From IMG/VR virus record IMGVR_UViG_3300045988_067384, positions 1-35,709 of that record: DNA of 35,709 bases; one strand, 5' to 3'. This document shows, in pieces, positions 1 to 32,746 of this stretch (position 1 is the stretch's first letter; each line of letters starts with the position of its first letter). The DNA comes from a virus. A model generated the notes under the pieces. The model saw only the letters and a program-made list of their open reading frames with translations, searched no databases and had not been told where the DNA came from. A program made the translations under genes and the position numbers.

Positions 1-55
1 CCTTAACAACACTACATTTACCGGCGATTGTCCGTTTTATAAGAGTATTGATAAG
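1..55. repeat. Terminal direct repeat, left copy (identical to 35655-35709)
   Basis: Read directly: ccttaacaacactacatttaccggcgattgtccgttttataagagtattgataag occurs at both ends of the window. Confidence 0.95.
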
Positions 56-97
56 TTTTATTTAGACTTGGCTAAGTGTACCTTGTCTGGGGTGTAA
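2..97 (+). CDS. 3' part of a junction-spanning small Cys-rich protein (ATG at 35566; 61 aa once the circle is closed)
   Basis: The frame from 35566 continues through the repeat into 56-94 and stops at TAA 95-97. Product is MSKIPANKCLNDDDNHRRCFARDEAGKCTCLNNTTFTGDCPFYKSIDKFYLDLAKCTLSGV. Confidence 0.55.
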   Translation, partial: LNNTTFTGDCPFYKSIDKFYLDLAKCTLSGV

Positions 98-112
98 GGA
101 AGGAGCGGTAAC

Positions 113-361
113 ATGGATGATTTCATTTACAGTACCCTTGCAGTGATGAGCACAGTAATCCTTTTATTCTGTGTCTTCTTTTACGAGGTGGCAGACTTCT
201 GTCTGGGAAGACCGGGAAGGATATTATTTACAGCATTAGGCTTAATGCTTATGGCTCTTGCCATCCTTGGGATGGGTGCCAGGGAAAAGAGACTTGCAGT
301 AGCAAGAGAAAAGAGGAGGAACAGGAATGAACAAGGTCATATTGATAGGCAGGCTGTGTAG
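113..361 (+). CDS. Small membrane protein (two hydrophobic helices, basic tail)
   Basis: A GGAAGGAG SD lies upstream of the ATG. Hydrophobic segments are AVMSTVILLFCVFFY and FTALGLMLMALAILGM. It overlaps the ssb start by 35 nt. Confidence 0.5.
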   Translation: MDDFIYSTLAVMSTVILLFCVFFYEVADFCLGRPGRILFTALGLMLMALAILGMGAREKRLAVAREKRRNRNEQGHIDRQAV

Positions 362-773
362 GGATCCTGAGATCAGGTATTCTCAGCAGGGAGACGAACA
401 GATGGCAGTGGCAAGGTATACCCTTGCCGTAGACAGAAGGTATAAAAAAGACAATGAGCAGAGTGCGGATTTCATCAGTTGCGTAGCCTTTGGACGTTCA
501 GCAGAGTTCGCAGATAAGTACCTTAAGCAGGGCACGAAGATATGTGTCTGCGGAAGGATACAGACAGGAAGCTATACTAACAGGGATGGCAATAAGGTGT
601 ATACAACAGATGTTGTGGTAGAAGAGCAGGAATTTGCCGAGAGCAAGAACACGGCAGGAAATGACGGCAGCAGTTCAAGGCAGCAGGCTCCTTCACCTGC
701 TCCGGATCCAAGAGAAGCTTCCGGCTTCATGAGTATTCCAGAGGGGATAGAAGATGATCTACCCTTCAAGTAG
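327..773 (+). CDS. ssb: Single-stranded DNA-binding protein
   Basis: N-terminal OB fold begins MNKVILIGRL..DPE.RY. The Gly/Ser/Pro-rich linker and acidic C-terminal tip DDLPFK are typical of bacterial and phage SSB. An AGGAGG SD is present. Confidence 0.95.
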   Translation: MNKVILIGRLCRDPEIRYSQQGDEQMAVARYTLAVDRRYKKDNEQSADFISCVAFGRSAEFADKYLKQGTKICVCGRIQTGSYTNRDGNKVYTTDVVVEEQEFAESKNTAGNDGSSSRQQAPSPAPDPREASGFMSIPEGIEDDLPFK

Positions 774-789
774 AGGAGATGAGGATGAT

Positions 790-1185
790 ATGGGCAAGAA
801 CAAGGTAAGCAAGTACAGTAGCCGGAAGGTTGAGGTTGACGGCATTGTGTTCGACAGCAAGAAGGAAGCACAAAGATACAGCCAGTTGAAAGCCCTTGAA
901 GCTTCCGGAGCAATTAGCGACCTGCAACGGCAGCGTAAGTATATCCTTATCCCAACACAGAGAGCGTTGACCAATGAAATCTATGAAAGAGGACCGCACA
1001 AAGGATCATTCAAGAAAGGGAGAATCCTCGAAAAGGAATGTTCATATCTTGCGGATTTTGTATACATAGACAACGAAAAGGGTGAACTGGTGGTTGAAGA
1101 TACGAAAGGCTTTAGAACCAGAGACTATATCATAAAAAGAAAGCTTATGTTGTATACATACGGCATAAGGATAAGAGAGGTGTAA
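790..1185 (+). CDS. DUF1064-family PD-(D/E)xK-like nuclease (putative resolvase)
   Basis: Shows KYSSRKVEVDGIVFDSKKEAQRYSQLKALE...ADFVYID...VVEDTKG, the pattern typical of the phage DUF1064 family. I chose the ATG at 790 (GGAGATGAGG SD) over the track start at 754. Confidence 0.7.
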   Translation: MGKNKVSKYSSRKVEVDGIVFDSKKEAQRYSQLKALEASGAISDLQRQRKYILIPTQRALTNEIYERGPHKGSFKKGRILEKECSYLADFVYIDNEKGELVVEDTKGFRTRDYIIKRKLMLYTYGIRIREV

Positions 1186-1188
1186 GCT

Positions 1189-2133
1189 ATGGCAGAAAAA
1201 AGAATGTTCTCGTTACAGGTTATAGGCTGTGATGATTTTAAGGAAATGCCCTTATCTGCCCAGGCATTGTATTTTCATCTGGGCATGAACGCAGATGATG
1301 AGGGCTTCCTTAACAATGCTAAGAGCGTGAAGAGGTCTATTCTTGCGTCTGATGATGACATGAAACTGTTGATTGCCAAGGGCTTCATCATACAATTTGA
1401 GTCAGGAGTGGTTGCAATTCGTCACTGGAAAGTTAATAACCAGATACAGACAAGCAGGATCAAGCCGTCACAGTGTATTGAAGAAAAGAGACTGCTTGAG
1501 GTGAAAGAGGATAAGACGTATGATTTCAGCTCCGGGCTTAATTCTGATGATGATACATGCATTGATGATACTTCCGCAGGGCAGCAGGATACGGATATAT
1601 CCAGCCATGACACAAAGTGTGATAGTTCTGATAACATTTGTCAGCAGAATGATAACACTTGCTGTCAAAATGTCAGCAAGTGTGAACAAAATGAAAGCAA
1701 ATGTTGGAATAGTATAGATAAGATTAGATTAGATAAGGATAGTATAGATAAGTGTAGTATAGATAATATAGCCGCTTCTTCCGGCAAGAGTGCCGGCAGC
1801 AGAGCGGCAAAGGCTCCCAAGAAGAAGTATGGGGAGTATAAGCATGTACTCTTAACTGCTGCCGAATATGAGAAGCTTACTGCCGATTATGGCGAGGATA
1901 TCAGGGATAAGGCAATAAAATACCTGGATGAATACATAGCGGAGAAAGCATATAAATCTAAATCGCATTATCTTGCAATCAAAAGATGGGTGATTGATGC
2001 AGTAACTAACCAGGAATCAAGGCAGTACCGATCTGGAACCAATGGAACAGCATATGATCCGGGCAGGAACCGGGTGGCTGAGCAGCTTGACCGCTCATAC
2101 GAGATGATGGCGAACTGGGCTTCGTCTGGGTAA
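1189..2133 (+). CDS. Phage replisome organizer (SPP1 G38P / DnaD-like)
   Basis: N-terminus is MFSLQVIGCDDFKEMPLSAQALYFHLGMNADDEGF, as in the replisome organizer N-domain. C-terminus is YGEYKHVLLTAAEYEKL...HYLAIKRWV, DnaD-C-like. The middle is a low-complexity D/C/S-rich linker. Confidence 0.8.
   Translation: MAEKRMFSLQVIGCDDFKEMPLSAQALYFHLGMNADDEGFLNNAKSVKRSILASDDDMKLLIAKGFIIQFESGVVAIRHWKVNNQIQTSRIKPSQCIEEKRLLEVKEDKTYDFSSGLNSDDDTCIDDTSAGQQDTDISSHDTKCDSSDNICQQNDNTCCQNVSKCEQNESKCWNSIDKIRLDKDSIDKCSIDNIAASSGKSAGSRAAKAPKKKYGEYKHVLLTAAEYEKLTADYGEDIRDKAIKYLDEYIAEKAYKSKSHYLAIKRWVIDAVTNQESRQYRSGTNGTAYDPGRNRVAEQLDRSYEMMANWASSG
1540..1770. repeat. Iteron-like repeat cluster inside the organizer gene (candidate origin of replication)
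   Basis: AGTATAGATAA occurs three times (1711, 1741, 1756) with TAGATTAGATAAG between copies. Upstream there are repeated CAAAATG and TGTCAGCA motifs and an imperfect inverted repeat, acatttgtcagca...tgctgtcaaaatgt. Confidence 0.4.
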
Positions 2134-2181
2134 CGAGGAAGCCGCAGGTAAATTGGTTAATGATTGCAAGGAGGATAGGAC

Positions 2182-2556
2182 ATGGAGTTAAAGAGAGGCA
2201 TGAAAACAAGAGAAATGCAACTAGGCAGCAGGAGAAAGAAGCTGCATGACATAGCAGGTTATTATGGATCCACAGCTCAGAGCAGACAGTGCATAGAGGA
2301 ATGTGCGGAGCTCATACAGGCCATTAACAAATGGGACAGAGCACAGAGCTCAGGAGACCCGGAGAAAGTAAAAAAAGCTGTGGGCAGTATAGTCGAGGAG
2401 ATTGCAGACGTTAGGATCATGCTTGACCAGTTGATCTATCTCTATGGCTGCAGTGAAGAAGTTGACAAGATGATAGACGGAAAGATCAACCGCCAGATAG
2501 TCAGGATTGGCATGGAGATAGCTGGGGGAAAGGAGCCGGAACAGTGTGGAGAATGA
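2182..2556 (+). CDS. MazG-like nucleotide pyrophosphohydrolase family protein
   Basis: Small all-helical protein with paired acidic motifs, IEECAELIQAI and IVEEIADVRIML, and a GKINRQ tail as in MazG-like phage proteins. AAGGAGGA SD. Confidence 0.55.
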   Translation: MELKRGMKTREMQLGSRRKKLHDIAGYYGSTAQSRQCIEECAELIQAINKWDRAQSSGDPEKVKKAVGSIVEEIADVRIMLDQLIYLYGCSEEVDKMIDGKINRQIVRIGMEIAGGKEPEQCGE

Positions 2557-3220
2557 AAACGAGAAGTGGATCGTTGACACCATAGTACATATGTCTGGCA
2601 AATATACACCCTATCAGATATTTACGGATTGGATAACAATGACAGCCATATCTATCAGCAATGCGTGTAGGATGATGCACGATAAGGTTTATTACGAGAG
2701 AGAAAAACGGTTTAAAGATATAGCAAACAAATATAGCAAAGAGGAGTTTCTTAATATCAGCAACATGACCGGAGCGTTGTGTGGTGTTTTGGAAGAACAG
2801 GGCGGAGATGTATTAGGTGATATATACATGAAGTCAGGCTGCGGCAACAAGGTCACTGGTCAGTTTTTTACACCCTTTAACATATCATATCTTACTGCTG
2901 CCACAGTGTATGATTCTCAATTTAATCATTTATCAGAAAATGAGGTGATTGAAATTCATGAGCCATCTGCAGGTGCTGGCGGGATGATTATTGCTGTTGC
3001 CCAGATTATGAAGGAGCGAGGACTTGACTATCAAAGGCAGCTTCGTGTGGTTGCACAGGATCTTGATTGGAATGGAGTATACATGACATATGTGCAGTTG
3101 TCGCTAATGGGTATTAAAGCCGTTGTGGTCCAGGGAGACACGCTGTGTGATCCGTACCACAGTGGATATGACGAGATGAGGGTGCTCAGAACACCGGCGG
3201 AAATGGGTATGTTGTTGTAA
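2546..3220 (+). CDS. N6-adenine DNA methyltransferase, N-terminal (AdoMet-binding) half only
   Basis: Carries motif X (GQFFTP), motif I (EPSAGAGG), motif II (VAQDLD) and motif III (VVQGDTL). The ORF stops 24 aa after motif III with no (D/N)PP(Y/F) motif. GTG start. Confidence 0.7.
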   Translation: MENENEKWIVDTIVHMSGKYTPYQIFTDWITMTAISISNACRMMHDKVYYEREKRFKDIANKYSKEEFLNISNMTGALCGVLEEQGGDVLGDIYMKSGCGNKVTGQFFTPFNISYLTAATVYDSQFNHLSENEVIEIHEPSAGAGGMIIAVAQIMKERGLDYQRQLRVVAQDLDWNGVYMTYVQLSLMGIKAVVVQGDTLCDPYHSGYDEMRVLRTPAEMGMLL

Positions 3221-3268
3221 AAAATATCTGAGCGGTAGGCAACTTAAACACATAGGAGGTATCCATAA

Positions 3269-4213
3269 ATGGCAATGAGTATAGAAGAGCAGAGAGAGGA
3301 ACTTTTCTGCGACTATTTTGAGAGATGGATAAAAGATTACAAGGAAGGAGTGGTAAGGCATGTGACATTGATCAAGTATCATATGGCAGCTAAGAGATTG
3401 AGAGAAATAGCCCCAAATCTTAGGATGAAAGATCTTACAAGAAACTCATATCAAAATATATTAAATGAGTATGCATTAACACATGAAAAAACTACCACGT
3501 CAGACTTCCACCATCAACTCAGAGCGTCCCTGGTAGACGCATTTGACGATGGAGTCCTGGAAAGGGATATATCACACCGGGCGGTGATCAAGGGGAAGCT
3601 TCCAACGATCAATAAGTGCGTTAAGTATATTGGCAAGAAAGATCTCGAAAAACTACTTGAGGTGTTGGAGCTTGGATCAGAAATAAACTGGGATTGGTTC
3701 ATTATGCTTGTGGCTAAGACAGGATTGAGATTTGAAGAGGCACTGGCACTTACTCCGGAAGACTTTGATTTTAACAATCTGAGATTGCATATAAACAAGG
3801 CGTTTGATTACAAGCTGACGAATACTTTTTGCAAGACCAAGAACGAGTCATCTGTGCGTACTATTCTTCTTGACTTTAGAACAGCAATGCAGTTTGAAAA
3901 TCTGATAAAAGGCATGAATGTGAAAGAAAGAATATTCAAGCTTGGAAAGGGAGAGAAGATATATAGCTCAACGGCAAATGATAGGTTGCGGAAGCTGTGC
4001 CTTAAAGCAGGTATACCGGTTATAACCATCCATGGCTTGAGGCATACACATGCGTCTGTGCTTATGTATGAGGGAGTGACTCTTTCAACCATATCCAGGA
4101 GATTAGGGCACTCAAGCATGGCCACCACGCAAAACGTATACCTTCACATGATAAGGGAGCTTGAATGTAAGGACGAAAGTAAGATCATGGCGTCAATGAT
4201 GGAACTAAGATAA
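3269..4213 (+). CDS. Tyrosine recombinase (second integrase-family gene; no arm-binding N-domain)
   Basis: Catalytic signature is intact: TGLRFEE (Arg), HGLRHTHAS (HxxR), LGHSS (His), NVYLHM (Tyr). 314 aa with an AGGAGGT SD. Confidence 0.9.
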   Translation: MAMSIEEQREELFCDYFERWIKDYKEGVVRHVTLIKYHMAAKRLREIAPNLRMKDLTRNSYQNILNEYALTHEKTTTSDFHHQLRASLVDAFDDGVLERDISHRAVIKGKLPTINKCVKYIGKKDLEKLLEVLELGSEINWDWFIMLVAKTGLRFEEALALTPEDFDFNNLRLHINKAFDYKLTNTFCKTKNESSVRTILLDFRTAMQFENLIKGMNVKERIFKLGKGEKIYSSTANDRLRKLCLKAGIPVITIHGLRHTHASVLMYEGVTLSTISRRLGHSSMATTQNVYLHMIRELECKDESKIMASMMELR

Positions 4214-4242
4214 ATAGTGAAAGAAAGAGATGGGTGATATGA

Positions 4243-4518
4243 ATGAAAAAAATTCCGAAGGTCATAGTAGATAAGATACAGCGGAGGAATGAATTGGATA
4301 AAGAAATTCATGAATGGCTTAAAGAGAATGTTGATTTGGAAGGAATGGATACAAGAAATGCGGACATTGTAGATGATGTATCAGGTGATAAACAGGGCAC
4401 CGAAGAATGTGAAGAATGGTGTGACCAAAGATGTCTAGGTGAAGATTGGTATATGGGAGACTACTACTGGGAGACAGAATATCCGGGAAAGTACCTTCAT
4501 ATGGAGTTTGGTATATAG
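4243..4518 (+). CDS. Hypothetical acidic protein
   Basis: 91-aa ORF with an SD, on the same strand as its neighbours. No motif recognised. Confidence 0.45.
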   Translation: MKKIPKVIVDKIQRRNELDKEIHEWLKENVDLEGMDTRNADIVDDVSGDKQGTEECEEWCDQRCLGEDWYMGDYYWETEYPGKYLHMEFGI

Positions 4519-4529
4519 GTGGTGATGGT

Positions 4530-4754
4530 ATGAAAATATACGAATATAAAGGTAAGCATTACTGTGAAGAAGACCTTTCGCTTACGGATGATGATTATGC
4601 TGGAGACTTGTATGACTTGTATTGGGAACTAAAGGAAGATGGAAAGGCAAATGAAAGCACTTCTTACTATGCCGGGGGAAATGCATACTGCGAAGCAGAG
4701 GAACTGGTGGAAGAAGAATTTGCTGATTTAGTAATAGGTGAGGTGATTACATGA
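4530..4754 (+). CDS. Hypothetical acidic protein
   Basis: Start moved to the ATG at 4530 (GGTGGTGATGG SD). Product begins MKIYEYKGKHYCEEDL. No motif recognised. Confidence 0.45.
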   Translation: MKIYEYKGKHYCEEDLSLTDDDYAGDLYDLYWELKEDGKANESTSYYAGGNAYCEAEELVEEEFADLVIGEVIT

Positions 4755-5278
4755 ACAGAGAGGAATTTGCAACATTTGCAATGGCATTAAAGACATACTA
4801 TCCCAGGGAAAATCTGCTGCCAAACAACCAGGCTATGGAGCTGTGGTATAAGCAGCTACAGGATATTCCGTATGATGTTGCTGAGGCGGCTCTGAACAAG
4901 TGGGTAGCAACCAACAAATGGTCACCATCAATAGCGGACATCCGGGAAGCATATGTATCCGTGGCAGCAGGTGACTACCCCCTTGCAGGGGAGGAGTGGG
5001 ATAAGGTAATGCAGGCTATATGCAAGTATGGATCATACAACCCGGTAGAAGCCTTAGCAAGTCTTAATCCCATCACAGCCAACACGGTTAGACAGATAGG
5101 CGGCTTCCGGCAACTATGCTTTTCCGAGAACATAGTTGCAGACCGGGCGAACTTCTATAGAGTGTATGACAGGAATGTGGAACGAGCACGGCAGCAGGCG
5201 TTAATATCGCCACAGCTTAAAATCACAATAGCCGGCATAGCACAGAGGCAGCAGGCATTATTAAGCAAAGAAAAATAA
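4751..5278 (+). CDS. Replicative helicase loader/inhibitor (SPP1 G39P-like)
   Basis: N-terminus is EEFATFAMALKTYYPRENLLPNNQAMELWYKQLQDIPYDVAEAALNKWVATNKWSPSIADIRE, which matches my memory of the G39P-like family. Confidence 0.6.
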   Translation: MNREEFATFAMALKTYYPRENLLPNNQAMELWYKQLQDIPYDVAEAALNKWVATNKWSPSIADIREAYVSVAAGDYPLAGEEWDKVMQAICKYGSYNPVEALASLNPITANTVRQIGGFRQLCFSENIVADRANFYRVYDRNVERARQQALISPQLKITIAGIAQRQQALLSKEK

Positions 5279-5283
5279 CATAA

Positions 5284-5850
5284 ATGAAAGGAGCCGAACC
5301 TCCGGCCGGGGTGACGATATATCGGGTTCCTTTTGAAAATATGGAATTAAAAGAACTTACAGAAAAGACACTTGATTTATTAAAAATCAAAAATACAGAT
5401 GAGATATCGAACCGTTTATTTGATGTTGCAACAAATAACGATGTTCGTGTATATGAACAATTTTGTACGTTGATTAAGAATGACTTATCGGTTGATTGGC
5501 TGCAAATGATCTTTCAGTATTATCAAGCAGATAGGAAAGAGAAGATGCAGGACTACACACCGAAAAGCCTCTCGATATTTGTTGGGCGGCTGGTCGGAAA
5601 ATCAGATGTGATAATTGATATGTGTGCTGGGAGTGGTGCGTTGACCATTCAAAAATGGAACATGATGCCAGAACAGAAATTTGAATTATATGAGTTTGAC
5701 GAAAATGTGCTTCCGTTTCTACTGTTCAACATGGCAGTAAGAAATATTCAATGCACTGTATATCATGCGGACGTATTGCAAGGCGAGATTTTCCACACAT
5801 ATACAGTCTCAAAAGGGGACAAGTACGGAAAAGTGAAGGAGGTAGAATAA
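5284..5850 (+). CDS. Split N6-adenine DNA methyltransferase, AdoMet-binding subunit (motifs X, I, II, III)
   Basis: Has DYTPKSL (motif X), IIDMCAGSGALT (I), LYEFDENV (II) and VYHADVL (III). It stops 23 aa after motif III. The exact start is uncertain. Confidence 0.75.
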   Translation: MKGAEPPAGVTIYRVPFENMELKELTEKTLDLLKIKNTDEISNRLFDVATNNDVRVYEQFCTLIKNDLSVDWLQMIFQYYQADRKEKMQDYTPKSLSIFVGRLVGKSDVIIDMCAGSGALTIQKWNMMPEQKFELYEFDENVLPFLLFNMAVRNIQCTVYHADVLQGEIFHTYTVSKGDKYGKVKEVE

Positions 5851-6875
5851 TGAGTATATCATTAATATCGAACCCACCATATAACATGAGGTGGAAATTG
5901 CCACCATTTGCACAACTTCAATCACGATTTAATGACTGTGAACTTCCACCAGAAAAAAATGCGAATTTTGCTTTTGTTTTAACCGCACTGGACAAGGTGG
6001 ATGCGAAAGGCGTTTTCATACTGCCGTGCAGTGTATTGAGTGATGGATTGAAGCAGGAAGAAGAAATCAGAAAGTATCTGATTGAAAAAAACTTAATAGA
6101 AGCAGTCATAACATGTCCAAACAATATGTTTGAAAGTACAGGAATTGCAGTTTGCATCATTGTTTTCAACAAGCATAAGAGTACCACGCAAATAGAGCTT
6201 GTTGACATGAAAAATACATATGAAGTGGTGGAACGTGAACAGAGAGGACAGTATGGAAGTGCAAGCCATACAAACAGAGTATATAAGAAAGCAATGAAGG
6301 TCTTTTCTGATGAACAAATGGAACGTGCTATAAAAGCGATTGAAGAACACACGACAGAGAAAGAGTTCTCTGTGAGTATATCACCAGAGGATATCAAGGA
6401 AAAAGGATATAATCTTTTGCCTTCTAAATATTTTGAAATTGATTTTGAACCACAGCCGCATAGGGAATACAAGGAAATCATAGCAGAGCTTAACCATGTG
6501 ATCGAAGAAAAAAACGGCTTGAAGCTGACGATGAATGAGAGTCTTGCGAAAGCAATAGGGCTGTACGAGATTTTCCAGACATTTAAGGTATCAGAAGAAA
6601 ATAACAAAGCGATGAATGAGACGCTGGGGTTCACAGGAGAAAAAATCATTTCAGAAAATTTCATTGCAATATCGAAAAAAGGCGGAGAATTAAAGTTCGA
6701 AAATGGGAGAAAGGACAGTGTATCAACAATTCTTATGTCAATTTTGCAGATGTGGAAGCAACACATCATGTATCTGAACATGGAGGAAAACAGATTTTTG
6801 GTAGAATTACGGGATGCGTTATTATCGGATTTAATGAGTGGAAAGATTGATATAGGTGGCGAGAATGAAGAATAG
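5850..6875 (+). CDS. Split N6-adenine DNA methyltransferase, catalytic subunit (motifs IV-VIII plus C-terminal region)
   Basis: Begins MSISLISNPPYNMRW, so the NPPY motif IV lies at residues 8-11. Also has NANFAFVLTAL and FESTGIAVCIIVFNK. The ATG overlaps the upstream stop (TAATG) and is preceded by GAAGGAGGT. Confidence 0.85.
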   Translation: MSISLISNPPYNMRWKLPPFAQLQSRFNDCELPPEKNANFAFVLTALDKVDAKGVFILPCSVLSDGLKQEEEIRKYLIEKNLIEAVITCPNNMFESTGIAVCIIVFNKHKSTTQIELVDMKNTYEVVEREQRGQYGSASHTNRVYKKAMKVFSDEQMERAIKAIEEHTTEKEFSVSISPEDIKEKGYNLLPSKYFEIDFEPQPHREYKEIIAELNHVIEEKNGLKLTMNESLAKAIGLYEIFQTFKVSEENNKAMNETLGFTGEKIISENFIAISKKGGELKFENGRKDSVSTILMSILQMWKQHIMYLNMEENRFLVELRDALLSDLMSGKIDIGGENEE

Positions 6876-7131
6876 CGAATTAAAAGAATATTTAAGTAGC
6901 TTTCCAGATGATGCACCATTAAGTATTATCTGTGTGAATCAGAGAGAAAGAAAACTATATGAGCTGAAAGAGGTATTGTTTATAACAGGCCAAAGACAAC
7001 CAGTGGTTTTGACTGACATTGGTAAAGAATCGGACATGGACGAAGAGATGAAGAAAGCGTGCGAAGAATGCGAATCTGATGATTTAACCGGGCAAATGGA
7101 GATCGAAGACTTCCCGGAGGTACTGCCATGA
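6865..7131 (+). CDS. Hypothetical small acidic protein
   Basis: ORF with an AGGTGG SD. Its stop overlaps the C5-MTase start (ATGA). No motif recognised. Confidence 0.45.
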   Translation: MKNSELKEYLSSFPDDAPLSIICVNQRERKLYELKEVLFITGQRQPVVLTDIGKESDMDEEMKKACEECESDDLTGQMEIEDFPEVLP

Positions 7132-8621
7132 TAAATGGAGAACTTATTATTGATAATTTTGCCGGCGGGGGCGGGGCTTCCACCGGCATAGAAATGGCTA
7201 CCGGGTACAGTGTTGATATTGCTATCAATCATGACCCGGAGGCTATAAGAATGCACCAAGCCAATCATCCAACTACTAAGCACTACTGCGAAAATGTATG
7301 GGCGGTGGATCCTGTGGAAGCCTGTGAGGGACATCCGGTAGCCCTTGCCTGGTTTTCCCCGGACTGCAAGCATTTCAGCAAGGCCAAGGGCGGTAAACCA
7401 AAGGATAAGAACATCAGAGGGCTTGCATGGGTAGCCTTGAGGTGGGCGGCTCTTGTGAGACCAAGAGTGATCATGCTTGAGAATGTTGAGGAATTTAAGA
7501 CATGGGGACCACTTAATAGAGGGCACCATCCTATCAAGGCAAAGCAAGGCGACACATTCAGGCGGTTTGTATGTCAGCTTAATGACTTAGGATACAACGT
7601 ACAGTACAGGGAGCTTGTGGCAGCAGATTACGGAGCACCGACCACAAGGAAGAGGTTTTTCCTGATAGCCAGGTGTGATGGAGGGGATATCATATGGCCG
7701 AAGCCTACACACGCTCCCATGGACAGCGAAGAAGTTAAGGCTGGATTGCTTAAGCCTTATGTAGGAGCATATACACAGCTTGATTTTAGCCTGCCATGTC
7801 CGAGCATATTCGACACATCTGAGGAAATCAAAGAGAAATATGGTATCAGAGCGGTAAGGCCGCTTGCATCAAAAACTATGCAGAGGATTGCACGAGGCTT
7901 GAAGAAATTCGTATTAGACAACCCTGAGCCGTTCATAGTACCTATTGGCTACGGTGAACGAATAGGACAAGCTCCAAGAGTTCACGACATTAAGAAACCA
8001 CTACCGACAATAGATCACAACCGGTTGTTTACGGCTACGCTCATCCAGTATCATTCAGAGACTGCCTCCGGCGGAGTACGAGGACAGACCATAGAAGCCC
8101 CTATCATGACAGTGGATGGGTCGAACAGATACGGACTTGTCACATCATTCCTTAGCAAGTTTTATAAGACCTGCACAGGTCAGGATGAAAGAGAGCCATT
8201 ACATACAGTGACTACATCAGCCGGGCACTTCGGAGAGGTTAGAGCGTTTCTGATCAAATACTATGGCGAAGGTACTGGCCAGGACATTGAACAGCCACTT
8301 GACACAGTGACATCAAGAGACCGGTTCGGACTTGTGACCATCAAAGGCGAACAGTATCAGATAGTGGATATTGGACTTAGGATGTTGGAGCCGAGAGAAC
8401 TGTATGGGTGCCAAGGCTTCCCAGATGATTACATCATAGATCATGACAGCACAGGTAAGACATATTCAAGAAGTGAACAGGTTAAGAGATGTGGGAATGC
8501 AGTTTGTCCACCTATACCGGCGGCGATGGTGAGGTCGAATCTTCCAGAGCTTTGTGTAAGAAAAAGGATGCCAAACATGAGGATAGGCGAAGAAGAGAAT
8601 GGACAGTTGTGTTTTGTGTAA
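7128..8621 (+). CDS. DNA (cytosine-5) methyltransferase
   Basis: Has motif I (IDNFAGGGGAS), a catalytic PC-type motif (SPDCKHFS), ENV (MLENVEEF), QGFPDDY and GNAVCPP. Confidence 0.95.
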   Translation: MINGELIIDNFAGGGGASTGIEMATGYSVDIAINHDPEAIRMHQANHPTTKHYCENVWAVDPVEACEGHPVALAWFSPDCKHFSKAKGGKPKDKNIRGLAWVALRWAALVRPRVIMLENVEEFKTWGPLNRGHHPIKAKQGDTFRRFVCQLNDLGYNVQYRELVAADYGAPTTRKRFFLIARCDGGDIIWPKPTHAPMDSEEVKAGLLKPYVGAYTQLDFSLPCPSIFDTSEEIKEKYGIRAVRPLASKTMQRIARGLKKFVLDNPEPFIVPIGYGERIGQAPRVHDIKKPLPTIDHNRLFTATLIQYHSETASGGVRGQTIEAPIMTVDGSNRYGLVTSFLSKFYKTCTGQDEREPLHTVTTSAGHFGEVRAFLIKYYGEGTGQDIEQPLDTVTSRDRFGLVTIKGEQYQIVDIGLRMLEPRELYGCQGFPDDYIIDHDSTGKTYSRSEQVKRCGNAVCPPIPAAMVRSNLPELCVRKRMPNMRIGEEENGQLCFV

Positions 8622-8628
8622 CGGGTTT

Positions 8629-8647
8629 GAGGGGATTTGAACCCCTC
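8629..8647. other. Stem-loop after the C5-MTase gene; the minus strand reads like a tRNA T-arm
   Basis: The plus strand reads GAGGGG-atttgaa-CCCCTC. The minus strand reads AGGGG-TTCAAAT-CCCCT followed by CAAACCCG. No matching 5' tRNA half is present. Confidence 0.4.
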
Positions 8648-8740
8648 GGTGCCCAAATTTTGCGTTGATGATAATGAAATAACGATGAATTTTAGTGATA
8701 TTTATGAATGGCTTCAATCAGAAGCGGAATAGGAGAGAAC

Positions 8741-30567: not shown

Positions 30568-31686
30568 TTATAAAAAATTGATTTTGTCCATTTTTTTATT
30601 GTCGTTAATCACAACTTGCTCAGTAACATGGATGTAAATATCCTGTGTTATATCGCTGTGACTGTGCCCAAGTCTCCTGGCGATTTCGTCCGGAGTCATG
30701 CCGGCAGCAGCTAAAAGAGAAGCATGTGTGTGTCGGAGCTTGTGAGGTGTGATTCTGTGTCCAAGTACTGTCTCGGTTGCTTCTCTCAAATACTTTCCAT
30801 AGGCTGCATGGGACATGTAGGATCCTGTGTGGATGTCCGGCAGGAATAGATCACTTCTCAGCCCCTGCTCTAAAAGCTTTTCTTTACGCCATATGCGGCA
30901 CCGCCTGATCACGGTTTCAAGCTCCGGTTGTATATGAACGTCTCGTACTGAGTTATCTGTCTTGGGCGTTGTTATGATTTTATTGATAGTATCGTAAGTT
31001 TTAGTAACATGAATGACCTTGTTCTGCAGATCAACATCTGTATCTTCAAGGGCAATGAGCTCACCTGTACGAAGCCCGGTAAGTATTAGTATTTTTGTGG
31101 CGTAATACCAGTGCCAATGGTTCTTGCTTCTGATGTATTCAAGAAGTTTGGCTATTTCCGCAGGCTCAAGATATTTATCGGCGGTATCTGCCGGGACGAT
31201 ATCTTCAAACGGCTTCATTTTACGGATGAGTTGATAATTGTCATGATAATCATTTTGATATCCCCAGTTAATCATTGCCTTAAGCCTGGTAATGTAGGTA
31301 TTTAATGTGCTTATGGGCTTACCGGATTTAAGCAGCTTTTCATTGAGATACTGGGCAGTAATATTGTCTACAAGTGTATCATCTCCAAGTAATTTAATAA
31401 CCGAGGTCAAAATGATGTTGTTCCGTTTGGTTGTGGATTTTTTATAGAGTATTTCCTGATTTTGGATATAGATTTCCTGCAGGTCTCCAAGCGTGATTTT
31501 TGTGTTAATTTTTGTGCACTTAAGAGCCTCTTCAATTTTTGCATTTAAGAGCTTAATTGCCTTGTTTCTGTTCTGCGGAGTATCCTTAGGCATGATCACA
31601 GCGACCTTTTTAAGTTTTTCCGAGAGAGGGTCCATATACCTCTCACAATACTTGATTGTTCCGTTCTTTTTAATTTCTGTCCACAT
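30568..31686 (-). CDS. int: Tyrosine integrase (lysogeny integrase with N-terminal arm-type domain)
   Basis: Start taken at MWTEIKKNGTIKYCERYMDP (GGAGGAA SD). Catalytic residues: TGLRTGEL (Arg), HKLRHTHAS (HxxR), LGHS (His), DIYIHV (Tyr). Confidence 0.95.
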   Translation of the reverse strand: MWTEIKKNGTIKYCERYMDPLSEKLKKVAVIMPKDTPQNRNKAIKLLNAKIEEALKCTKINTKITLGDLQEIYIQNQEILYKKSTTKRNNIILTSVIKLLGDDTLVDNITAQYLNEKLLKSGKPISTLNTYITRLKAMINWGYQNDYHDNYQLIRKMKPFEDIVPADTADKYLEPAEIAKLLEYIRSKNHWHWYYATKILILTGLRTGELIALEDTDVDLQNKVIHVTKTYDTINKIITTPKTDNSVRDVHIQPELETVIRRCRIWRKEKLLEQGLRSDLFLPDIHTGSYMSHAAYGKYLREATETVLGHRITPHKLRHTHASLLAAAGMTPDEIARRLGHSHSDITQDIYIHVTEQVVINDNKKMDKINFL

Positions 31687-31837
31687 ATATATTCCTCCTG
31701 TATGAGATAGAAAAAATCCTATCAAAATCAGAAGGCTTGTGATATAATACACTCGTGTATGCGTTATATATAAGCCTTCTTAGGTTTGTAGGTAACACAC
31801 CCCCTCAGATGGGCCAACATCTGGGGGAATTTTTATT

Positions 31838-32746
31838 TTATTTGGCTTCTTCAACAGCGTCCCAGAAATCATCTTCGTTGACTATTGTCAGAAGCTGGCC
31901 GTTCTTTCTTCGCTGAACGGCGTCTTCAACTTTTCTGCCATAACACGAAAATGCCCAACATGGATTACCGTCATTACCGACGACAAGATAGCGAGTCTTT
32001 CTAGTTGGATTGTTTTTGAAGGTTCCACCCAAGTTAGTAATTATCTGAGCTATTTCTTTCCGTGTAGCTTTAAGAGACTGCCCGGTGAAGCATATTTCAT
32101 TGTTTGCAATCTGCATATCTTCACATATGGCACAAATGCCCTTGATACTGTATTTTTCTCTTAATTTGTTTAATTCAATATCATTCAGGTTGTAAGATGA
32201 TTTTAAATCTACAAAATTGCTCAAAAAGCCTTTTAGCATGTCACGCTCTTCATTTGTGATTACTCCATCCTCCAACACAGAGAGCAGGACGCTTTCTATC
32301 TCGTCAAATGGGTAGCAGCCTGACAAGAAGTGATTTTCGTCTATCCATGACTTAAGGGTATATACTTCACTATCCAGTATTTTATCATCTGCCAAAATTC
32401 CATGTATCATACCGGATAAGAATTGAATTGATGAGGTGACTATATCGTAGTAATCTGAGTCCGCTGTGAAGTTATCACATACCCACATGATGTCACTTGC
32501 TTCCTCTGCGGTAAGTATCTCGTCCTCGTAAGCAGTCTGGATCATTGGAATCAACTCGTTGAATGGATGGCGGTCGATTAGATTAGCATGGCATAGGCAC
32601 CAGTGGCTTAACTCATTAACTTCATCCTCTGTGATCTGCCCATCGGCGTGTATTCCGGCTACAATGCCCTTTAAGGTGTTGATTGCCTTATGTAGTTCTG
32701 CAGGCTGTGTGAATTGCCTGTATTCTGATATGTTCTGTGCACTCAT
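31838..32746 (-). CDS. BRCT-domain protein with a duplicated TerB-like N-terminal module
   Basis: C-terminus is CFTGQSLKATRKEIAQIITNLGGTFKNNPTRKTRYLVVGNDGNPCWAFSCYGRKVEDAVQRRKNGQLLTIVNEDDF (BRCT-like). Residues 25-93 and 110-178 form a gapless internal repeat, 22/69 identical by my hand count. AAGGAG SD, 18 nt after the cI stop. Confidence 0.6.
   Translation of the reverse strand: MSAQNISEYRQFTQPAELHKAINTLKGIVAGIHADGQITEDEVNELSHWCLCHANLIDRHPFNELIPMIQTAYEDEILTAEEASDIMWVCDNFTADSDYYDIVTSSIQFLSGMIHGILADDKILDSEVYTLKSWIDENHFLSGCYPFDEIESVLLSVLEDGVITNEERDMLKGFLSNFVDLKSSYNLNDIELNKLREKYSIKGICAICEDMQIANNEICFTGQSLKATRKEIAQIITNLGGTFKNNPTRKTRYLVVGNDGNPCWAFSCYGRKVEDAVQRRKNGQLLTIVNEDDFWDAVEEAK

Follow-up and report, generated by a model that had tools for sequence, protein, structure and literature searches.

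Two adjacent open reading frames (ORFs), ORF1 and ORF2, of the IMG/VR virus record IMGVR_UViG_3300045988_067384 very likely encode the two subunits of a single HsdM-like N6-adenine methyltransferase that was split by gene fission. The stretch of DNA analyzed here (the window) comprises 35,709 nucleotides (nt) of that record, and both ORFs lie on its plus strand. Sequence and model place the fission point in a loop that connects motif III (strand b3 and its hairpin) to motif IV (NPPY, strand b4). An earlier note, made from the sequence of the window alone, had favored an evolved two-subunit arrangement over a fresh frameshift, and our comparative analyses bear this out, in that the split is conserved, a Shine-Dalgarno (SD) sequence and a start codon mark the split but not the fused junctions, and both halves appear to be under purifying selection. 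The pair thus shows what is seen in natural two-polypeptide methyltransferases, namely, adjacent or overlapping ORFs that share one domain in a conserved arrangement.

ORF1 (positions 5341 to 5850, plus strand) encodes a 169-amino-acid (aa) N-terminal subunit, which consists of a helical N domain and the S-adenosylmethionine (AdoMet)-binding Rossmann half and ends in KGDKYGKVKEVE before the stop codon. ORF2 (5850 to 6875, plus strand, frame 3) encodes a 341-aa C-terminal subunit in which strand b4, with the catalytic NPPY, stands at the very N terminus and is followed by motifs V to VIII. Since ORF1 covers positions 12 to 120 of the Pfam profile N6_Mtase (PF02384) and ORF2 covers positions 129 to 304 (E = 4e-34), ORF1 and ORF2 are complementary halves of one domain. 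Motifs X, I, II, III, IV (NPPY), and V to VIII run across ORF1 and then ORF2 in the order of the gamma class, and among proteins of solved structure, Type I M subunits give the best sequence match (EcoR124 HsdM, E = 6e-21). No single polypeptide holds the whole catalytic domain, because the stop codon at 5848 to 5850 and the change of frame part motifs I to III from motifs IV to VIII. Given that the sheet of class I methyltransferases has the strand order 3-2-1-4-5-7-6, the cut runs along the seam between b1 and b4, with the cofactor half on one side and the catalytic half on the other.

When ORF1 (residues 20 to 188) was concatenated with ORF2 and modeled with AlphaFold2, the resulting model had a predicted local distance difference test score (pLDDT) of 82 and a predicted template modeling score of 0.66. 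Its top Foldseek matches were the HsdM subunits 3lkd, 7vs4, and 7btq, followed by M.BseCI, CamA, and M.TaqI (E = 3e-18 to 1e-7). ORF1 contributes the helical N domain, strands b1 to b3, and a b-hairpin (residues 149 to 168) to this model, and ORF2 opens with b4 and NPPY.

Membership in the Type I HsdM group itself was not supported. Residues 5 to 220 of ORF2 align with positions 310 to 510 of the 515 positions of the TIGR00497 hsdM model, and the score of 77.5 bits is far below the curated equivalog cutoff of 242.75. Neighboring genes in the window encode a G39P-like loader and a C5 methyltransferase, alongside a small ORF, and no hsdS or hsdR gene lies nearby. The C-terminal ~120 residues of ORF2 extend beyond the end of the HsdM homology, have no Pfam match, and may constitute a target-recognition or oligomerization region. 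The ORF2 tail, LRDALLSDLMSGKIDI, resembles the conserved helix of HsdS, but it gave no Methylase_S match in Pfam even at an E value of 10, and we do not claim this resemblance. ORF1 and ORF2 together are therefore predicted to form a phage orphan HsdM-like (gamma-class) N6-adenine methyltransferase.

The anatomy of the junction in the window was as previously described. ORF1 carries motifs X (DYTPKSL, 5551 to 5571), I (DMCAGSGALT, 5617 to 5646), II (YEFDENV, 5689 to 5709), and III (VYHADVL, 5758 to 5778), all at the positions reported in the earlier note, and its 3' end reads VYHADVLQGEIFHTYTVSKGDKYGKVKEVE followed by the stop codon TAA at 5848 to 5850. The ATG of ORF2 (5850 to 5852) has one base in common with this stop codon, which gives a TAATG overlap at 5848 to 5852 on the plus strand. 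ORF2 begins with MSISLISNPPYNMRW (first residues, MSISLISNPPY), so that NPPY starts 8 residues in, as claimed (residues 8 to 11, nt 5871 to 5882). The likewise confirmed SD site for ORF2, GAAGGAGGT (5835 to 5843, plus strand), is embedded in the ORF1 codons for V-K-E-V and includes GGAGG at 5838 to 5842, 7 nt before the ATG. The two ORFs do lie in different frames: in the ORF list of the window, ORF2 is in the -1 frame relative to ORF1, and its frame is already open from position 5700, upstream of its ATG. No homopolymer or repeat tract was found at the break in the window sequence from 5830 to 5855.

The start of ORF1, previously placed at the ATG at 5284 (frame 1; 188 aa), needed to be corrected. 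This ATG is not conserved, whereas the N terminus MELKELTEK was kept in 16 of 16 relatives inspected, which start with ATG, GTG, or TTG, and nucleotide homology with related cassettes sets in at about 5341 to 5346. Based on these observations, the real start is most likely the ATG at 5341. A hairpin in which AAAGGAGCC pairs with GGGUUCCUUU (5285 to 5335, plus strand; -19.5 kcal/mol, z = -1.7) sits directly after the stop codon of the upstream gene and directly before this conserved start, and a similar GGAACC...GGTTCC structure was observed upstream of the genes in the related loci L050 and L055. The hairpin could be a terminator or a structure that brings a distant SD sequence near the ORF1 ATG.

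The split extends well beyond the window. A search with the concatenated halves retrieved mostly fused proteins of ~510 aa, all at 69% identity or less, with P0001 and P0002 as the nearest fused relatives (68 to 69%). Every match at 73 to 99% identity, in contrast, was a C-half-only protein of 335 to 373 aa that starts M-x-x-x-L-I/V-S-NPPY. For the 99% relative, P0003, the identical gaaTAATGagt junction was found in three independent assemblies (L052, L053, and L054), one of which is a 34-kb contig with different flanking genes. DNA around relatives was drawn from IMG/VR, encoding contigs, GTDB genomes, and GenBank phages, and it yielded about 55 split loci at 87% down to 40% identity, including loci in the isolate genome of Clostridium sp. 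OF09-36 and in a Roseburia metagenome-assembled genome. The cultured Lactococcus phage D4044 also has the split form, with D4044_053 (170 aa) and D4044_054 (335 aa) having one nucleotide in common in the same TAATG geometry as in the window; its GenBank record labels both coding sequences "N-6 DNA methylase." Wherever a split locus included enough upstream sequence, the C-half was directly preceded by an N-half ORF, and neither a reversed gene order nor a permuted fusion was seen among the about 100 loci examined.

An exhaustive search for full-length representatives of 50%-identity clusters returned 22 split and 52 fused forms (n = 74). After pooling and dereplication at ~90%, 57 of 170 lineages were split and 113 were fused. 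The earlier note had asked whether the break is conserved or relatives are fused, and it had held that the proposal would fail if close homologues were all single chain and the break occurred only on this contig. The relatives contradict this scenario: every one with at least 73% identity is split, and split forms occur at identities as low as 40%. The automated table of loci appeared to show a mobile gene inserted between the halves in L140, like the phage "genes in pieces," but this locus proved to be a normal adjacent pair. In locus L159 (2126 to 3505), the frame of a fused-type relative is cut by an upstream in-frame stop codon, such that the longest ORF starts after the N-terminal domain, and no SD sequence or start codon lies near NPPY. 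L159, which contrasts with the conserved split, is probably a genuine pseudogene or truncated form.

We compared 35 distinct split junction sequences with 21 distinct fused junctions. A start codon was located 5 to 7 codons before the Asn of NPPY in 34 of the 35 split junctions (25 ATG, 5 GTG, and 4 TTG), L159 being the exception. In these 34 junctions, the anti-SD duplex energy of the 20 nt upstream of the start averaged -9.9 kcal/mol, compared with -2.0 kcal/mol for the corresponding stretch of the 21 fused junctions (P = 2e-9, Mann-Whitney test). None of the 21 fused junctions had a start codon or an SD sequence there; they carry Lys, Glu, or Thr codons instead, and their linker is ~8 residues longer (...KGDKYSSVKKIENFKPEKTDSCISNPPY). 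The ORF1 stop codon, by comparison, floats: it lies 2 to 3 nt before the start in 3 junctions and overlaps the start by 1 nt (TAATG) in 5, by 4 nt (ATGA or GTGA) in 11, and by 13 to 35 nt in 14. Both -1 and +1 offsets were found, and L061, which belongs to the window's own clade (74% identity), is of the +1 type. Since the start codon and SD sequence are fixed and the stop codon and frame drift, the thing conserved is the independent initiation site of the catalytic half rather than the frame relation between the halves, which argues for separate but coupled translation and against programmed frameshifting. The recurrence of this arrangement in dozens of diverged loci, with the start codon and SD sequence at the same position, is far beyond chance.

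Two further features of these junctions were observed. In the +1-type split loci L039, L040, L043, and L047, the ORF1 tail, D-F/I-K-P/S-T-V/L-stop, is an out-of-frame reading of the L-I-S-N-P-P-Y-N codons of ORF2, and the ORF1 stop codon TAA lies inside TAT-AAC. In the commonest fused lineage (L001- and L005-type genes), the linker E-N-F-K-P-E-K-T-D precedes CISNPPY; this linker could be what is left of a short duplication by which two overlapping ORFs became fused, or it may be coincidental.

Ratios of nonsynonymous to synonymous divergence (dN/dS), calculated by the Nei-Gojobori method between split relatives, were 0.06 to 0.17 for the N-half in 17 of 18 estimable pairs (0.28 in the remaining pair) and 0.065 to 0.19 for the C-half, at a synonymous divergence (dS) of ~0.4 to >2 (saturation) for the compared pairs. 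These low ratios at high dS imply that both ORFs were kept as coding sequence long after the split, and thus both halves are, by this measure, under purifying selection. In a neighbor-joining tree of the C-halves, the split state appears in many separate places, and the fused proteins P0001 and P0002 nest in the window's split clade. The varied junction geometries point, independently of the tree, either to events that recurred or to long drift. Within the family, the motif III/IV site thus appears to have undergone fission and re-fusion repeatedly. The earlier suggestion of an evolved arrangement therefore holds, but not as an exclusive state, since close fused relatives exist and the two forms interconvert. 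We also considered whether the halves are recombination modules that are swapped at the split. Although the halves of L050 and L003 differ in dS (1.7 for the N-half versus 0.15 for the C-half), a sliding-window analysis placed the breakpoint ~200 nt inside ORF2 rather than at the junction, and this idea was rejected.

The window derives from a temperate siphovirus-like phage of gut Clostridia, with genes for a DnaD-like loader, a G39P-like loader, a terminase, a portal, an amidase, and an integrase (30568 to 31752, minus strand). Within it, ORF1, ORF2, and a small downstream ORF make up a mobile cassette (5347 to 7104, plus strand). The L078 prophage is collinear with the window at 1 to 5346 and at 7105 to 8621 (~91% identity), and it has a D12-class Dam methyltransferase gene (7833 to 8630) where the window has 5347 to 7104. 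Conversely, L052 shares positions 5263 to 7063 of the window at 99.2% identity, has otherwise different flanks, and lacks the adjacent C5 methyltransferase gene (7128 to 8621 in the window; compared stretch, 7165 to 8700). Methyltransferase genes thus appear to be swapped as cassettes between fixed borders, a "methylase slot." That ORF1, ORF2, and the small ORF move as one cassette is further evidence that they form one functional unit. The small ORF (6865 to 7131, plus strand; MKNSELKEYL..., 88 aa from the ATG at 6865) overlaps the end of ORF2 by 11 nt, is preceded by AGGTGG, and matched no Pfam or PHROG family. In L050 it accompanies the cassette, as does a 72-aa version in L052 to L054.

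Could the pair be a normally single-chain gene broken by a recent frameshift, or by a sequencing or assembly indel? Most family members are indeed fused at ~510 aa, ORF1 and ORF2 do lie in different frames, and inactive frameshift-split methyltransferase genes are well documented in Helicobacter and Campylobacter (PMC3936762, PMC4335053). Nevertheless, we see practically no chance that this explanation is correct. Because the identical junction occurs in three independent assemblies and the same architecture is found in isolate and cultured-phage genomes, a sequencing indel at the break is very unlikely. Furthermore, since the fused linker is 8 aa longer, a single indel would not restore the fused form. 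A pseudogene or phase-variable gene would show a lineage-specific break, at a repeat, under relaxed selection, whereas this break spans 57 lineages, persists from 99% to 40% identity across many differing junction sequences, has no homopolymer or repeat, comes with an SD sequence and start codon specific to the split state, and separates two halves that both have dN/dS values of 0.06 to 0.19 at saturated dS. A programmed -1 ribosomal frameshift that joins ORF1 and ORF2 into one polypeptide is also very improbable. A -1 slip anywhere between 5700 and 5848 would give a fusion, GGA AAA G at 5827 to 5833 could allow a single-tRNA-Lys -1 slip, and the product, as deduced from the sequence, would read ...KGDKYGK-SEGGRIMSISLISNPPY, with a linker of plausible length. 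However, neither a conserved slippery site nor a constant offset was found: the A-AAA-G motif (5829 to 5833) is missing from the closest relatives (L050 and L003 have GGA GAA GT), and -1, +1, and nonoverlapping junctions all occur, which no single recoding mechanism fits. The SD sequence, moreover, lies downstream of the putative slip site rather than upstream, as it does in dnaX, and conservation instead falls on a start codon whose position is fixed and on an SD sequence at initiation distance from it.

The two products might instead not form one enzyme, with ORF1 acting as a stand-alone AdoMet-binding protein and ORF2 acting alone or with another partner. The window does hold another N-half-only N6_Mtase protein (2546 to 3220), which comes from a large family without a catalytic half and is paired with a tyrosine recombinase. 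This precedent leaves separate functions only a slim prospect, given that ORF1 and ORF2 homologues are on one chain in two-thirds of the family, that the N-half is immediately upstream of the C-half in every split locus, and that ORF1 and ORF2 are transferred together. In addition, ORF2 lacks any AdoMet-binding motif and ORF1 lacks a catalytic motif, ORF1 shows no detectable similarity to the 224-aa protein encoded at 2546 to 3220, and the latter is present in L078, which has neither ORF1 nor ORF2. Finally, the earlier note had suggested that the split provides a control point for when the phage genome becomes methylated, such that the halves are made at different times or in different amounts and their assembly gates methylation. 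Two polypeptides can in general be controlled separately, and the weak initiation context and hairpin of ORF1, set against the very strong SD sequence of ORF2, could give different translation rates. We found no support for such timing, however, and consider a regulatory device unlikely: co-oriented ORFs with a stop/start overlap, as found in most lineages, are the usual signature of coexpression, and no promoter, terminator, or regulator lies between ORF1 and ORF2. Furthermore, because fused and split forms interconvert often and share their genomic slot with ordinary single-chain methyltransferases, the two states are probably functionally equivalent.

Some observations do weigh against the reading of ORF1 and ORF2 as an evolved two-subunit enzyme. 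The ORF1 start at 5341 has no obvious SD sequence within the usual distance, the sole AAAGGAG being sequestered by the upstream hairpin. The AlphaFold2 model is weakest at the junction and around NPPY, with a pLDDT of <50 for residues 170 to 176, and the reassembly of the halves is therefore not modeled with confidence. Fitch parsimony gave at least 16 changes between the split and fused states, but this count is rough, since the neighbor-joining tree has no support values and the gene recombines. Lastly, we identified no advantage of the split over the fused state, and the split may be neutral.

If ORF1 and ORF2 do encode two subunits of one enzyme, translation of ORF2 would begin at its own ATG by initiation or re-initiation, and the overlap of stop and start codons would yield roughly matched amounts of the two chains. 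The AdoMet half (b1 to b3) and the catalytic and DNA-binding half (b4 to b7 plus the C-terminal region) would then reassemble by pairing of strands b1 and b4. By analogy with other phage orphan methyltransferases, the reassembled enzyme would methylate phage DNA and would probably shield it from host restriction. The motif III/IV site was probably favored for two reasons: it falls in a surface-exposed, permissive loop between two subdomains, and the purine-rich codons of the hairpin (K-G-D/E-K-Y/F-G-x-V-K-E-V; AAA GGN GAN AAR ... AAG GAG GT) would readily form an SD sequence.

Natural precedents for one catalytic domain encoded by two adjacent or overlapping ORFs are the C5 methyltransferases M.AquI and M.EcoHK31I, whose products must associate (PMC3404938) and which thus represent natural cases of fragment complementation. 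Unlike these C5-cytosine enzymes, the pair described here is of the HsdM-like N6-adenine type with NPPY. Whereas the cut in M.AquI lies within the variable region that separates motifs VIII and IX and the small subunit of M.EcoHK31I holds only motif IX (PMC3404938), the cut here falls between motifs III and IV and separates the AdoMet-binding from the catalytic half of the sheet; and whereas those are single enzymes, the split here recurs across a large phage family. Engineered N- and C-terminal fragments of M.HhaI, M.SssI, and M.BspRI, inactive by themselves, reassemble into active enzyme upon coexpression (PMC3404938, PMC3439449), but these bisections are artificial and of C5 enzymes, in contrast with the natural, maintained bisection of an adenine-type enzyme. 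HsdM and the gamma-class orphan and Type II enzymes (EcoR124 HsdM, PacII M1/M2, M.BseCI, CamA, and M.TaqI) share the motif order X-I-II-III-IV-V-VIII and the catalytic NPPY with the pair, although they are single polypeptides, whereas the pair is split and has the extra ~120-aa C-terminal region. In Helicobacter and Campylobacter, the adenine methyltransferase frame is likewise broken into two ORFs, and the genes are inactive or phase variable (PMC3936762, PMC4335053). Those breaks are strain specific, often at homopolymers, and inactivating, whereas the break described here is conserved, has no repeat, provides an initiation site, and is accompanied by purifying selection. The "split DNA methyltransferases" of one of these reports trace to frameshifted or multisubunit systems (PMC4335053). 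Our literature searches turned up no gamma-class or HsdM-like adenine methyltransferase whose catalytic fold is reported to be split in a conserved manner.

The motif III/IV boundary is where, in the classifications of Malone, Jeltsch, and Bujnicki, alpha-class enzymes carry the target recognition domain and beta-class enzymes are permuted. If permutation took a fission-fusion route, halves that stand alone would be the expected evidence (PMC3320104). Although the split described here falls at the same boundary, no reversed or permuted relative was found in ~100 loci, and a connection with class permutation is therefore no more than possible.

The second half-methyltransferase of the window (2546 to 3220, plus strand; 224 aa) contains N6_Mtase motifs X to III (FFTP, EPSAGAGG, AQDLD, and VVQGDTL) and no NPPY. 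It models confidently as an N domain plus b1 to b3 (pLDDT, 90.6). Its family yielded 2214 matches; among the best 120 of these 2214, lengths were 182 to 250 aa, with all but one at 217 to 250 aa. A search for a second catalytic half that could serve as its partner, using a C-half hidden Markov model and a six-frame motif scan of the window, found only ORF2. The gene that directly follows it in the window encodes a tyrosine recombinase (3269 to 4213, plus strand) distinct from the lysogeny integrase. In the half-methyltransferase loci surveyed (L069 to L079 and L162 to L186), a tyrosine recombinase gene was next downstream in 11 of 11 encoding contigs with downstream sequence, representing three protein clusters, and in 21 of 25 IMG/VR loci, often with a 4-nt overlap; the recombinase partners are 314 to 398 aa. 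The half-methyltransferase and tyrosine recombinase thus appear to form a conserved pair, of which the half-methyltransferase is unrelated to the split enzyme. Elsewhere in the window, the gene for the canonical lysogeny integrase (394 aa, 30568 to 31752) is followed by another minus-strand gene (31838 to 32746), whose 302-aa product weakly matches a BRCT domain, an unusual feature in a phage lysogeny module.

What is new here is the recurrent and, by its substitution pattern, selected two-subunit form of a known methyltransferase family. An adenine DNA methyltransferase would thus be stably encoded as two polypeptides, cut between its cofactor and catalytic halves, in a form that was gained or lost many times in gut and dairy phages. 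Since annotation pipelines label each piece an "N-6 DNA methylase" or a fragment, assignments of the methylome or REBASE type would overlook the need for both genes. Tools built on split adenine methyltransferases, for example, to write N6-methyladenine in a proximity- or target-dependent manner, could draw on the natural halves as ready parts already tested by evolution; split-methyltransferase tools have so far been built on artificially bisected C5 enzymes. More tentatively, the family might preserve, in its living members, a record of how genes split and re-fuse at the motif III/IV boundary. The two-subunit enzymes would then be the long-postulated free-standing intermediates toward class permutation, each half-domain would be a unit that folds autonomously and can be exchanged, and the 224-aa half-methyltransferase would be a second, independent use of such a unit. 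With the cultured phage D4044 growing on Lactococcus lactis, the family may serve as a test system for the fission-fusion model of class permutation.

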